Source of the DNA: a virus | DNA: 64,000 nucleotides | Reading direction: 5' to 3' (one strand) | IMG/VR virus record: IMGVR_UViG_3300005253_002057 | Location: 24,158-88,157 of that record | Shown: positions 39,505-59,764 of the stretch, piece by piece | Position numbering within the stretch: the first letter of the stretch is position 1 | Layout of the letters: every line of letters begins with the position of its first letter | Notes under the pieces: model-generated | What the model saw: only the letters and a program-made list of their open reading frames with translations | Databases searched by the model: none | Told to the model about the DNA's origin: nothing | Program-made: the position numbers and the translations under genes

Positions 39505-40377
39505 ATGAATATTCTTCTGGAAGACAACGAAGTAAGTAACAGTGTAGTTTCTTTTCTACGACAACAAGGCTACACTGTATTCAATAAGCTTCCTAAAGCT
39601 ACTAGACTAGACTATGCTATATCTACTAATGGAATAAGTACTCTATACAAATGGAGTCCTAGAAGAAACTTATTCAAGAAGACACCTATAGCTAACAAGA
39701 TAATACTTTGGCAAACTAAAGAACTAATAAAGAATATAAGCAAGTTGGATAAGTTAGATGATGTATGGTACATAACTCATCCAGCTCAACTAGAAGGAGT
39801 TTTACCCCTATCTCCTAAAGTATTACCCTTACTTCTAAAGGATCTACCTGCTGTATCTATAGGAGATGAAGAGAAAAGGCTAAGAAAAGTAATAGTAATA
39901 GGTGAAGAGCGAAGTAAGCATATACAGATGACTAAAGATGCTTGTCAAAGCATTGATGTAGACTTTGAAATCTTCGACCCTATAAAAAGGGCAAGAAGCT
40001 GGGGATTAGGTGAAGAACAAGTGGCTAGAGAGTTACAAGAACTACTGTCCATAGCTGCTATATCTGTGGCCCTATACTCCCCTAATGAAGATAAGAGCTT
40101 TTACTACTCGGATCCAAAAAGAATAAAACAATCCCTAGCCTTTGGAGTGCCAGTAATAACCACTCCTATACCACCTATATGGGAAGAAATAGAGCAATTC
40201 TCAGCTGGAGTAGTTATAAAAGACTTTTATCTTGATTCCTTAAAACTTGCTCTTGAAGTAGTACTAGATAATTGGCAAGTAATGGCCATAAATGCCAGAA
40301 CCTTGGCAGAAAAATATGTAGTATCCTCAGACTGGATAAATCTAATGGAGGAAGTAGAGAGAGTTGAATCAAACTAG
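39505..40377 (+). CDS. GT-B (GT4-like) glycosyltransferase
   Basis: YYSDPKRIKQSLAFGVPVITT...AGVVI. Confidence 0.7.
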   Translation: MNILLEDNEVSNSVVSFLRQQGYTVFNKLPKATRLDYAISTNGISTLYKWSPRRNLFKKTPIANKIILWQTKELIKNISKLDKLDDVWYITHPAQLEGVLPLSPKVLPLLLKDLPAVSIGDEEKRLRKVIVIGEERSKHIQMTKDACQSIDVDFEIFDPIKRARSWGLGEEQVARELQELLSIAAISVALYSPNEDKSFYYSDPKRIKQSLAFGVPVITTPIPPIWEEIEQFSAGVVIKDFYLDSLKLALEVVLDNWQVMAINARTLAEKYVVSSDWINLMEEVERVESN

Positions 40378-41518
40378 CATAGGAGTAATAGGACTAGGTA
40401 GACTAGGACTTCCAGTAGCATCTTTGCTAAGTAGATATTATCCAACTGTAGGGCTAGATATAGATCAAGCAAAGATAGACTCACTTAACAAGGGTACATT
40501 CACAACCAGTGAGCCTAACTGTACTACTTCTGGGGCAGCCTACTATACTACAGACTACGATAGCTTAGTATCCTCTTCAGATATAGTAGTGGTCTGTGTT
40601 AATACTCCTACAGATGCAAATGGCAACATGGACTCTACTCAGTTAAAAGAATGCTTCAAAAGTCTAGACAAGGCACTGGCTAGTACTAGCAAGAATATAA
40701 AGATACTAGTGCTTAGCACTCTAATGCCAGAACATGGAGAATGGCTAGCCTCCTTCTTCTCCGAGCGCAAGTGGCCTCCCCAGATAGTAATTAATCCAGT
40801 CTGGATTGCTATAGGTAGCGTAATAAAAGATCTGCAGAATCCTCCAATGCAAGTATACGGAGGTGATTCAGATAAGCCAATTCTATGGGCTATAAAGTTA
40901 TGGGCAGATATTCCGTCAGTTGAGTATCATACGCCTATAATAACTGACACACGTACAGCAAGTTTCTTAAAGCTAGCCCATAACGCTTGGTGTACTATGA
41001 AGATGTCATTTATAGGAGAGCTGGGGGACAAAGCAGCGCAGTTAGGAATAGACATAAATACCACGTCAGAGTTCTTCAGGCGAGGGGGAGAGAGGCCTGG
41101 AGCGTTCTGGCAGTATGGACCTTCATTCGGAGGACCTTGTTTTCCCAGAGACTTAGACTTCTTCAACCAATTCACTGACTCAGGTCTAGGCAGGCGAGTA
41201 CAGCTAATAAATTTTAGTAGACTACATAACATAGCTGCACAAGTTAAGTCTAAGAACACAGTTCTTATAGTAGGTAAGACCTATAAAGAGGGAGTAGACA
41301 TAACTGAGTCTTCTATATCACTTAAGCTGGAGCAGCTACTACTGAAAAAGAGCTGTGTAGTAGACTTTCTAGATGAAGATCTTAATGAACTACCTGGCTC
41401 AGACGTATCAGCCTACGATACAGTAATAGTACTTCATAGAGGATACGATAGACTAATATCCGAAGCCAGAGAGACTAGCAATCTACAAGTAATAGACTTA
41501 TGGTCAACCAAGGAGTAG
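40364..41518 (+). CDS. UDP-glucose/GDP-mannose dehydrogenase family
   Basis: GLGRLGLP, VCVNTP, KLAHNA, FGGPCFPRD. Confidence 0.9.
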   Translation: MNQTSIGVIGLGRLGLPVASLLSRYYPTVGLDIDQAKIDSLNKGTFTTSEPNCTTSGAAYYTTDYDSLVSSSDIVVVCVNTPTDANGNMDSTQLKECFKSLDKALASTSKNIKILVLSTLMPEHGEWLASFFSERKWPPQIVINPVWIAIGSVIKDLQNPPMQVYGGDSDKPILWAIKLWADIPSVEYHTPIITDTRTASFLKLAHNAWCTMKMSFIGELGDKAAQLGIDINTTSEFFRRGGERPGAFWQYGPSFGGPCFPRDLDFFNQFTDSGLGRRVQLINFSRLHNIAAQVKSKNTVLIVGKTYKEGVDITESSISLKLEQLLLKKSCVVDFLDEDLNELPGSDVSAYDTVIVLHRGYDRLISEARETSNLQVIDLWSTKE

Positions 41519-41520
41519 TA

Positions 41521-57734: not shown

Positions 57735-58839
57735 GCTGAGAAATATTATAATACTTGCCCTAATACTAAAGATATCTCTACTCTTAGTACTAAACATCTT
57801 TATCTTTAACTGGCAGCCTGAGCACGAAGATACAGTAGATTACATACATGATGCTAACACTTATGCTATATTTAGGGGAGACCCTAACGAAGTAATACTA
57901 CCTTATAATGGCCTGAATATGTTACTTCTTATGGCTCCCAACTTTATACACACAAAACTTACAGCTACTCAGCCCTTACCTTTCATAGTAGCTAGTCTAC
58001 TTATAACATCCTTCACTATAATGGTATCCCTGCTCACAATAAGACTTGCATATAAGATAACTCCTATAGCTGGAATATTACTAGCCCTAGACCCGTATCT
58101 AATGTATTTATCAATAACTCCACTCAAAGATACTTTGTTAGTATTTGCAGCAGTCCTACTAATACACGAGTTTCTCAAGTCCCATAGACGAGAATCAACA
58201 TCTGTATTCTCTGCAATACTAACTACAGGACTAAGAGTTAAGTTAGGTATAGCCCTAGGTATAATATTTCTAATACCTACAATACTCAGAAAGAGGTACA
58301 AAGAAGCATTCTTTATAGTACTAGGGTTAATAGTAATAGCAGTAGTCTTTCCCTTAATAGGTTATGAAACAGGACTCAACTTACTAAACCCCAGCAAAGT
58401 ACTGGTAGCACAAGAAAATCCACTTAAATCTAGCAGAACAGACTTTTTTGAAGAAAGACCAACTAGTACTTGGCTAGCTCCAGTAAGATTCATGCTTGAA
58501 CCCTATCCATTCTCCTGTCATTGGAGTAACACAGGATGTAATTTAAGAGAGCAACTATTCTCACTATATATGACATACTGGCTACTAATAGCCCCACTAG
58601 CTTTCTATATACTTAAACGTGAAACAGTATACATATTATTATCAGTAATACTACTAGGAACAGTACTAGCAGCTACAACTGAATCTATAACTGCACTAAT
58701 GAGATGGAGAATGCCTTTATTTGCAATGCTAGAAATACTAGCAGGAGTAAGTACACATGAATATCTTAGTAGCAACAATAGATATGCCAGGTTACGCACC
58801 AGCCTTAATAGTAGACTGGCTGCGAGAACAGGGGCATAA
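57727..58839 (+). CDS. GT-C/polymerase-like membrane protein, paralogue of the N-half of 45296-47083
   Basis: HEDTVDY; DPYLMYLSITPLKDTL; EPYP; MRWRMP. Confidence 0.7.
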   Translation: MIRLRNIIILALILKISLLLVLNIFIFNWQPEHEDTVDYIHDANTYAIFRGDPNEVILPYNGLNMLLLMAPNFIHTKLTATQPLPFIVASLLITSFTIMVSLLTIRLAYKITPIAGILLALDPYLMYLSITPLKDTLLVFAAVLLIHEFLKSHRRESTSVFSAILTTGLRVKLGIALGIIFLIPTILRKRYKEAFFIVLGLIVIAVVFPLIGYETGLNLLNPSKVLVAQENPLKSSRTDFFEERPTSTWLAPVRFMLEPYPFSCHWSNTGCNLREQLFSLYMTYWLLIAPLAFYILKRETVYILLSVILLGTVLAATTESITALMRWRMPLFAMLEILAGVSTHEYLSSNNRYARLRTSLNSRLAARTGA

Positions 58840-59764
58840 CGTAGAAGTAGTCTACAACCCATCCAAGTCTACAAGAGGACAGAGGGAAAAATTCTTCCCT
58901 ATATACTCTCACTGGCTAAACACCAAGCACCTAATAAGAACAACTAAGCTATTAGCCCGAAAGTTACCTGAGTTGGAATTCGATCTAGCCATAGCCCCAG
59001 ATACTGCACTAGCACTAGGTATAGTAGCCTTAAAGAGAAAAAGGCTAGTGAAAAAGACAGTATACTGGCGTCTAGACTACTATCCAAAGAAGTATCCAGG
59101 CCCTGCAAATTGGATATACCAAGCTGCAGAAGCACTTGCCTTGGTATGGTCAGACGAGATATGGTCTATATCATCTCTATTAGACAAAAAAGTGCGTAAG
59201 TCACTTAAGAGGCATCTCAAGAAGACCATACATGTACCTTACCTACTACCAAAGATACCAAATCTTTGGCCTACAGACTTAAGAAAAGACACAGTAGTAT
59301 GGCTAGGTACAGATCTTGATGGAGGGGAAAGCAGATATCTAGCCCAGACAGCAGTAGCTAGAGCAGCTGTAATAGGTAAGGACTATAGAAGAGGAGTAGG
59401 ATTAACAGTAGCCGACTACTCAAATCCTAATTACGTACAGACTGAGGAACAGTTACAGAAGACTTTAGACACAGCTAAAATAGGCCTCGCGATCTATAAA
59501 CCTGAGAAGGGATCTTGCAAGTATTACTCAGACCCAGGAAGGATAAAGCATTATCTAGCCCACGGCCTTCCAGTAATAGTAACAAAAGTAGCCCCTATCT
59601 GGAGACAAATAGATTTAAAAGGAGCTGGTATAGTAGTAGAATGGGACCCTGACTCCATAGCGGAGGCAATAAACATAATACTAACTAACTGGGGTTGGTA
59701 CTCAAAGAATGCCAGAGAACTAGGAGAAACTTTTTTAGTATCAGATAAGTGGATAAAGCTATGA
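58757..59764 (+). CDS. GT-B (GT4-like) glycosyltransferase
   Basis: PGYAP, YWRLDYYP, YYSDPGRIKHYLAHGLPVIVT; paralogue of 42594-43550. Confidence 0.75.
   Translation: MNILVATIDMPGYAPALIVDWLREQGHNVEVVYNPSKSTRGQREKFFPIYSHWLNTKHLIRTTKLLARKLPELEFDLAIAPDTALALGIVALKRKRLVKKTVYWRLDYYPKKYPGPANWIYQAAEALALVWSDEIWSISSLLDKKVRKSLKRHLKKTIHVPYLLPKIPNLWPTDLRKDTVVWLGTDLDGGESRYLAQTAVARAAVIGKDYRRGVGLTVADYSNPNYVQTEEQLQKTLDTAKIGLAIYKPEKGSCKYYSDPGRIKHYLAHGLPVIVTKVAPIWRQIDLKGAGIVVEWDPDSIAEAINIILTNWGWYSKNARELGETFLVSDKWIKL

Follow-up and report, generated by a model that had tools for sequence, protein, structure and literature searches.

A candidate lipid-linked glycan pathway of the Wzx/Wzy type encoded by a virus from marine sediment

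In the 64,000-nucleotide stretch of DNA analysed here, referred to as the window (bases 24158-88157 of the 88,157-bp IMG/VR virus record IMGVR_UViG_3300005253_002057), positions 39505 to 59764 carry genes for the assembly of a glycan on a lipid carrier, arranged in two tightly packed blocks, 39505-50893 and 54738-59764. We argue strongly that this cluster belongs to the virus and is neither a recent host island nor a chimera. With confidence about evenly balanced, we further read it as a Wzx/Wzy-type, polyprenyl-linked glycan pathway that is transcribed from viral promoters and re-coats the infected bacterium. The glycan genes, and the two promoters that frame the first block, are the following.

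37888..37916, plus strand: promoter P1, a perfect TTGACA-17-TATAAT site, heading an operon that runs without gaps into the first glycan block
39505..40377, plus strand: short GT-B-like glycosyltransferase paralogue of 290 amino acids (aa), without part of the N-domain (Pfam Glycos_transf_1, E 0.0045; paralogy)
40364..41518, plus strand: divergent nucleotide-sugar 6-dehydrogenase (Pfam match of the N-domain 4e-21; TIGR03026 2.4e-48, below the cut-off of that model)
41500..42594, plus strand: nucleotide-sugar epimerase/dehydratase of the short-chain dehydrogenase/reductase (SDR) type (Pfam Epimerase 5.6e-49; GxxGxxG and YxxxK present)
42594..43550, plus strand: GT-B (GT4-like) glycosyltransferase paralogue (36% identical to the 58757 protein over the full length, E 1e-62)
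43537..44238, plus strand: FkbM-family methyltransferase 1 (TIGR01444 4e-23)
44220..45380, plus strand: putative Wzx/MurJ-like flippase of the MOP superfamily (about 13 hydrophobic segments; neighbours in the ESM Atlas)
45296..47083, plus strand: GT-C-like/Bac_transf fusion (N-terminal ~400 aa with multiple transmembrane (TM) segments and EHPDSxxYH; C-terminal polyprenyl-phosphate phosphoglycosyl transferase, PGT)
47074..48339, plus strand: Wzy_C-family membrane protein, polymerase- or ligase-like (Pfam Wzy_C, 34.2 bits against a cut-off of 31.7; confirmed in six frames)
48242..49090, plus strand: alpha/beta hydrolase 1 (N-terminal hydrophobic anchor, GISWG nucleophile elbow, GGH motif)
49074..50099, plus strand: alpha/beta hydrolase 2, esterase-like (N-terminal anchor, GISEG and GGH motifs)
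50099..50893, plus strand: class I S-adenosylmethionine-dependent methyltransferase (Pfam/NCBIfam)
50917..50945, plus strand: promoter P2, a perfect TTGACA-17-TATAAT site with an ATG 7 nt downstream (50953)
54738..56000, plus strand: UDP-N-acetylhexosamine 6-dehydrogenase of the TviB/WecC/WbpA type (TIGR03026 1e-111; catalytic GGHCLPVD motif)
56901..57734, plus strand: FkbM-family methyltransferase 2 (TIGR01444 1.8e-23)
57727..58839, plus strand: stand-alone GT-C-like membrane protein, paralogue of the N-domain of the PGT (motifs EHEDTxxY, DPYxxYLS..LKDT and RWRMP)
58757..59764, plus strand: GT-B (GT4-like) glycosyltransferase paralogue 3 (sub-threshold matches to Pfam Glyco_trans_4_4, Glyco_transf_4 and Glyco_trans_1_4 that follow the order of domains expected for GT-B)

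The enzyme families and the layout of the operons are direct observations. An initial annotation had named all of these enzyme classes and placed them in two clusters, and both statements are borne out, the former by Pfam and NCBIfam profiles, all-against-all BLAST and structure or language-model neighbours. Read in the translations, the catalytic motifs are intact in both dehydrogenases (GGxC, with the catalytic Cys of the 40364-41518 enzyme kept in GGPCFPRD), in the SDR enzyme, in the PGT and in the hydrolases. The three GT-B proteins (39505, 42594 and 58757) are paralogous in all-against-all BLAST (E 1e-62 to 9e-17), and so are the hydrolases 48242 and 49074 (7e-19), which have GISxG, GGH and N-terminal anchors in common; hydrolase 2 also matches an NCBIfam extracellular depolymerase/esterase (2.8e-7) and an esterase/lipase PHROG. 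For 58757-59764, an AlphaFold2 (AF2) model of modest quality (pLDDT 58) is matched by Foldseek solely to GT-B enzymes (E 2e-10 to 5e-8), mainly from family GT4 (BshA, MshA, GlgM, PimA, WbnH, PglA) with a few UDP-GlcNAc 2-epimerases.

The membrane-bound core of the cluster is made up of the flippase, the PGT fusion, the Wzy_C protein and the stand-alone GT-C-like protein. The PGT part of the fusion has a Pfam Bac_transf match at 1.8e-39 (135.6 bits against a 27-bit cut-off), matches of its catalytic part to TIGR03025 (2e-44) and TIGR03023 (9e-42), and the Asp-Glu dyad retained in ALDEIPQ. Its N-domain is paralogous to the 57727 protein (BLAST 4e-7), and the motif E-H-[PE]-D-[ST]-x-x-Y after TM1 is common to the 57727 protein, the N-domain of the PGT and a 601-aa relative of the fusion (P0004). 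GT-C enzymes generally have their catalytic carboxylates in the first outer loop after TM1. The 57727-58839 protein has no Pfam PMT_2 match, and the GT-C proteins fall into no NCBIfam family; its structure neighbours in the Atlas are the PMT_2/GT39, PMT and Glyco_transf_22 clusters, at TM-scores of 0.64-0.69 by query (0.66-0.69 for PMT_2/GT39). The flippase likewise has no Pfam, NCBIfam or PHROG match, and in the ESM Atlas it lies near MurJ/Polysacc_synt/MatE clusters (score 0.95-0.98, structure TM-score 0.79). In the public annotation the PGT begins at residue 143 and is 453 aa long, a difference that concerns window positions 45296-45722; since the 595-aa frame, which contains the EHPDS motif, aligns from its first residues with P0004, the deposited gene model cuts off part of the GT-C-like domain.

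The Wzy_C gene lies directly 3' of the PGT gene. Its product keeps the conserved arginines of the family, R218 in VSRGS and R291 in TSGR, of which R291 is invariant in the alignment of its relatives; among 1.8 billion representatives, only five relatives were found at E <0.001. At the position of the family histidine, where relatives read PHN, SHN or PHS, the window protein reads P-P-N327-N-L-Y-L. The sister protein, 79% identical, also has Asn at the position of Asn327, inside an almost invariant loop, from which we conclude that the replacement is fixed and that the gene evolves under constraint. Activity depends on the corresponding His in WaaL (E. coli H338, in an H-N-x-x-L motif), PglL (H349) and TfpM (H286), and PglL-type enzymes bear an additional PglL_A motif (PMC3643930, PMC9829042). 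PglL_A (PF15864) was found neither in the Wzy_C protein by hmmscan (E up to 10) nor in a six-frame search of the contig, no NCBIfam model matches the protein, sequence searches of the PDB with the protein or its profile returned nothing, and its AF2 model (pLDDT 44) is unusable. Without the essential His, PglL_A and an NCBIfam match, the protein lacks features that define the ligases as well as features that define the O-oligosaccharyltransferases, and the suggestion of the initial annotation that it might be an O-oligosaccharyltransferase is not supported, although the broader proposal that the virus brings its own glycosylation system stands in the form of a virus-owned, lipid-linked glycan pathway. 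While sequence alone cannot tell a Wzy_C polymerase from a ligase, the most economical reading, which we infer from its place in an operon of the Wzx/Wzy type, right behind the PGT and the flippase, is that of a polymerase.

The genes of 39505-50893 overlap or abut throughout, and P2 occupies the sole gap between this block and the operon containing the second one. P1 and P2 belong to a set of seven perfect TTGACA-17/18-TATAAT sites in the genome, each of which points in the direction of its genes and is embedded in the context TGTATAAT. By our own estimate from 4^-12, far fewer than one perfect site would be expected by chance, and shuffled sequences yield 3.8 sites even when one mismatch is allowed. 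At five of the seven, an ATG lies 6-9 nt past the -10 box, which suggests that the first genes of these operons are leaderless; this is probably the case for the first gene after P1, whose ATG (37923) is 6 nt past the -10 box. The promoters and the genes that adjoin the glycan blocks are given below.

Window 4949, 20767, 37888 and 50917, and genome 23457 (plus strand) and 23059 and 10293 (minus strand): the seven perfect promoters, with TG directly 5' of TATAAT in all
37923..39500, plus strand: small operon genes upstream of the first block (leaderless open reading frame (ORF), 190-aa protein, and TSCPD-domain protein at 39165-39500), none with a glycan function
50953..54772, plus strand: non-glycan genes between the blocks (Arg-rich protein, 652-aa polymerase-like protein, DarG-like macrodomain protein and OmpR-type winged-helix regulator)

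Among the genes between the blocks, the 652-aa protein (51626-53584) weakly matches a phage DNA polymerase PHROG (1.1e-5, aa 400-528), and the 147-aa macrodomain protein (53565-54008) matches the DarG antitoxin, a DNA ADP-ribosyl glycohydrolase (2.7e-19). Judged by this match, the latter may act as a counter-defence against DarT-type DNA ADP-ribosylation. The virus-type genes between and after the blocks also include one for an RNase H-like exonuclease.

Whether such a cluster is the virus's own or merely passenger DNA, that is, a recently captured host polysaccharide island or an assembly chimera with no viral role, can be judged from its composition, its surroundings and its relatives. The relative synonymous codon usage (RSCU) of the cluster correlates with that of the rest of the genome at 0.89, below the 0.98 of an internal control, and the G+C content at third codon positions is slightly higher (0.29 in the cluster vs 0.25 in the rest of the genome), so that the claim of the initial annotation that the codon style matches the genome is roughly right, with some of the deviation that passenger DNA would show; some phage records with polysaccharide blocks, moreover, may be host contamination. 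Against this stand a perfect promoter of the viral type between the blocks, and virus genes (polymerase-like, DarG-like and RNase H-like) interleaved with and downstream of the glycan genes. Positions 39800-59790 recur without a single difference in one 23.7-kb contig of another assembly, made from run X1, a run that may itself be the source data of the record. Diverged relatives come from two later studies (2019 marine-sediment runs, and a 2025 run whose habitat is not recorded) and are collinear over the cluster, covering 28-30 of 30 bins at mostly <90% nucleotide identity; identity to sister proteins is 90% for the PGT, 88% and 82% for the dehydrogenase and 79% for the Wzy_C protein. This conservation in relatives is observed directly.

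Cellular sequences are far more distant. The closest cellular copies of the 54738 dehydrogenase, the best-conserved enzyme, are 42-56% identical, and 80 of 80 are bacterial. In the tree of this enzyme (disregarding rows L060, L062 and L066, which are mis-extracted ORFs), the stem that leads to the viral clade measures 1.78 substitutions per site and arises from a polytomy inside a clade rich in Chloroflexota; the tree does not resolve the donor lineage. For the Wzy_C protein and the GT-C-PGT fusion, cellular relatives are almost lacking. Scans of IMG/VR with an 840-aa protein, the PGT, alignment A1, PolA and the helicase gave no real relatives, and a genome-collection scan with the GT-C-PGT alignment found nothing; the sole locus from a metagenome scan (L001, 2.8 kb) holds the C-terminal part of the fusion followed by a methyltransferase-like gene. 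Neither a nearly identical host locus nor an absence from relatives was encountered. Taken together, the viral promoters, the interleaved genes of viral type, the collinear relatives, the long stem and the limit of 56% cellular identity lead us to regard the cluster as owned by the virus, as the initial annotation had held in arguing against a recent host island; the passenger-DNA explanation is already largely refuted, and we consider it very improbable.

The host is probably a bacterium, as indicated by the seven sigma-70 promoters, the purely bacterial relatives of the enzymes, the Bac_transf transferase and the OmpR-type regulator. The archaeal N-glycosylation in which the initial annotation had framed the system is consequently doubtful.

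In a bacterium, the pathway could operate as follows; the sugar identities, the role of the polymerase, the acceptor and the biological purpose are what we infer from the gene content. The dehydrogenases and the SDR enzyme would supply nucleotide sugars of the uronic-acid type (UDP-GlcNAcA or UDP-ManNAcA; a hexuronate or its epimer), the Bac_transf domain would prime undecaprenyl phosphate, the three GT-B paralogues would extend the repeat unit, and the FkbM and class I methyltransferases would O-methylate it. The MOP flippase would then move the lipid-linked unit across the membrane, where it would most likely be polymerised by the Wzy_C protein, with the two GT-C-like domains transferring or decorating the glycan and the two anchored esterases trimming the resident surface glycan. 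The net effect would be a cell re-coated with a methylated repeat glycan containing uronic acid, leading to receptor masking and thereby superinfection exclusion; the new glycan would also coat anything that leaves through that membrane.

Several points weigh against this re-coating role. Six-frame searches of the contig, which is about 55% complete, found no GT2 polyprenyl-phosphate sugar synthase, no Wzz and no LCP (LytR_cpsA_psr) protein, which leaves it to the host, or to genes on sequence that was not assembled, to prime the donor for the GT-C enzymes, control chain length and carry out the final attachment. For the flippase and the GT-C proteins, the labels are drawn from language-model and predicted-structure neighbours rather than from curated profiles, and the activity of the Wzy_C protein is uncertain owing to the missing His. 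Furthermore, a simple polymer would not call for as many as three transferase-like proteins at the outer face, and virion proteins appear to have acceptor-like loops, both of which would fit an alternative in which the pathway is dedicated to virion glycosylation, with the glycan transferred at the outer face onto membrane-embedded virion proteins before the particle is extruded. This alternative involves three further proteins.

10779..11039, plus strand: His1-type capsid candidate of 86 aa with two hydrophobic segments (N16-R17-T18 sequon; loop TLNTETTDAS)
11428..14340, plus strand: basic protein of 970 aa, in which hydrophobic segments at aa 688-706 and 839-857 flank a loop with a Thr/Ser/Pro-rich stretch
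21831..22367, plus strand: Zot/pI-like P-loop morphogenesis ATPase, in the same module as the capsid candidate

The best Pfam match of the capsid candidate is His1_capsid (PF25665; E 1.6e-4), at 22 bits and thus under the 27-bit cut-off, with a possible bias from hydrophobic composition, and its best PHROGs are annotated 'virion structural protein' (4.9e-5). The capsid call of the initial annotation thus has sub-threshold support; its statement that the protein has no N-x-S/T sequon was mistaken, given N16-R17-T18. The 970-aa protein lacks Tyr, Cys and His altogether and has a single Trp and a single Met; its loop is Pro/Ala- and Thr/Ser-rich. This loop might be a candidate O-glycan acceptor, and together with that of the capsid candidate it provides the possible acceptors for virion glycosylation, both predicted to be extracytoplasmic. 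Together, the two-helix capsid candidate and the ATPase make up a signature of assembly at the membrane and may resemble the morphogenetic module of wyrdviruses, for which extrusion without lysis has been proposed (10.1101/2021.07.29.453957), possibly here in a bacterial virus. Virion glycosylation would also agree with the two PMT_2-like GT-C domains, from a superfamily that includes protein O-mannosyltransferases, and with the title of Quemin et al. 2015, as given in the reference list of 10.1101/2021.07.29.453957, which concerns glycosylated capsid proteins of SSV1. It is at odds, however, with a Wzy_C protein that has neither PglL_A nor the His needed by all tested O-oligosaccharyltransferases, with the sub-threshold capsid assignment, and with the lack of a GT2 donor synthase for the GT-C enzymes on the contig, and a tailed-phage module could be encoded in the part of the genome that this fragment does not cover. 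On balance we hold dedicated virion glycosylation to be a tentative possibility. Its most specific form, a bacterial extruding virus with a His1/wyrdvirus-type coat, a Zot-like ATPase and its own lipid-linked glycosylation of membrane-embedded virion proteins, in which the outer-face transferase would be the His-less Wzy_C enzyme or the GT-C-PGT fusion, strikes us as doubtful. If true, it would represent the first autonomous virion-glycosylation machinery in a prokaryotic virus and the first spindle-type lineage with a bacterial host. Bacterial-type promoters and a capsid candidate resembling those of archaeal spindle viruses co-occur in this genome; spindle viruses have not been seen in bacteria (10.1101/2021.07.29.453957).

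A different question is whether the record is a virus at all, or instead represents, in whole or in part, a large non-viral mobile element from a sediment bacterium, with the glycan cluster as ordinary cargo of advantage to the host. Searches of the contig, which is incomplete, detected no terminase, no portal and no HK97 or double jelly-roll (DJR) capsid, the capsid match is sub-threshold, and the completeness according to CheckV is 55%. Conversely, IMG/VR classes the record as viral (and 'linear'), and the contig encodes a phage-style deazaguanine pathway, a fusion of uracil-DNA glycosylase (UDG) with PolA, fibre-like proteins, the Zot-like ATPase and proteins with virion-structural PHROG matches, within a strict two-arm, promoter-driven architecture that is typical of viruses: the genes of the left 23 kb of the record are on the minus strand, and those of the whole window are on the plus strand. 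We judge a mobile element to be improbable. That the contig is a fragment follows from the genes that are cut at both of its ends. At window positions 63971-64000 the record terminates in a Nextera transposase adapter (CTGTCTCTTATACACATCT...), an untrimmed artefact that marks an artificial contig end. The contig gave no match to the peptidoglycan hydrolases SLT, M23 and Amidase_2, an absence that says little in the case of a fragment; no tRNA gene turned up in the window, and intrinsic terminators were not enriched. The sample with this DNA is a 2015 marine-sediment metagenome.

Other parts of the record contain further recognisable genes. At window positions 1932-10712, QueC, a radical-SAM QueE-like protein, GTP cyclohydrolase I, a Cas4-like exonuclease and the UDG-PolA fusion are grouped, in what looks like a 7-deazaguanine DNA-modification module adjoining the replicase. 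A 1641-aa protein (24009-28934) contains a 137-aa stretch that is 35-38% identical to cyanophage fibritin and tail-fibre proteins, and a protein of the left arm (L002 11394-12371, minus strand) has collagen-like repeats matching tail-fibre PHROGs.

Phage-borne glycan clusters are already known. The T4-like cyanophage P-SSM2 has two clusters with 24 putative lipopolysaccharide (LPS) genes in total, whose suggested role is to change the host surface and to block other phages (PMC1079782), and provides a precedent for a surface-remodelling role; its clusters are described as nucleotide-sugar and transferase genes, whereas here a PGT, a flippase, a Wzy_C protein and GT-C-like proteins are also present, in a virus that is not recognisably T4-like. 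Serotype-converting phages, such as D3 of P. aeruginosa with its Wzy-beta (PMC4815439), similarly supply an outer-face Wzx/Wzy enzyme that alters the surface glycan, but do so with one to three modifying genes on top of the host pathway, as opposed to the ~15 genes here, which range from sugar activation to the outer-face steps. With bacterial Wzx/Wzy loci for exopolysaccharide, capsular polysaccharide or O-antigen, the cluster has in common a PGT, GT-B enzymes, a putative MOP flippase, Wzy_C, nucleotide-sugar enzymes and methyltransferases in one operon; it differs in having no Wzz/polysaccharide co-polymerase, export or LCP protein on the contig, a PGT fused to a GT-C-like domain, Asn at the Wzy_C His, viral promoters and interleaved virus genes. 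WaaL and PglL/TfpO/TfpM (PMC3643930, PMC9829042) have the Wzy_C domain and the two outer-loop arginines (R218 and R291 here) in common with the window protein, which departs from them in Asn327 for His (also in its sister), and in having no PglL_A and no NCBIfam match.

Among other viruses, the chloroviruses and mimiviruses (PMC4691112, PMC9614988) also encode their own sugar-nucleotide enzymes, glycosyltransferases and methyltransferases. Those giant-virus systems are eukaryotic, however, and virion glycosylation in the present virus is a candidate reading from its genes, one that would make it their prokaryotic counterpart. To our knowledge, lipid-linked Wzx/Wzy logic has not been described for giant viruses. 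With wyrdviruses and His1-like spindle viruses (10.1101/2021.07.29.453957) the present virus would share a two-segment capsid protein of ~80 aa (a candidate here) and the Zot/pI-like ATPase, but their genomes are <=20 kb with archaeal hosts, in contrast to an incomplete 88-kb contig with bacterial sigma-70 promoters and a capsid match below the cut-off, and glycan pathways are not reported for wyrdviruses. The 42.6-kb circular record of the Aphanizomenon phage Yong-DA (L094, ON073792.1, 1-16209) encodes a PGT, a glycosyltransferase, an acetyltransferase, polysaccharide export proteins and two methyltransferases; an FkbM methyltransferase is among its genes. The block may be genuinely of phage origin, or else the record is host DNA that was filed as a phage. 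Across 50,697 phage records, homologues of the PGT occur in 39, and none is detectable for the flippase or the Wzy_C protein. Few viruses encode most of what is required for assembling a glycan on a membrane lipid and bringing it to the cell surface. The present virus would do so with a membrane-bound core that reaches from lipid priming through flipping to outer-face enzymes.

Bacterial viruses tweak the surface sugars of their hosts with one or a few genes, and a few carry clusters of soluble sugar enzymes. A whole membrane-bound core would let a virus install a new surface glycan largely independently of the host locus, with implications for the control that sediment viruses exert over superinfection, over receptor availability and possibly over the surface of their own particles. 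Of biochemical interest are a Wzy_C protein that is conserved under selection despite missing a histidine thought to be essential, and the conserved fusion of a GT-C-like domain with a phosphoglycosyl transferase. Should the signals from the capsid candidate and the ATPase be borne out, the genome would also challenge the view of spindle-type viruses as restricted to archaea.

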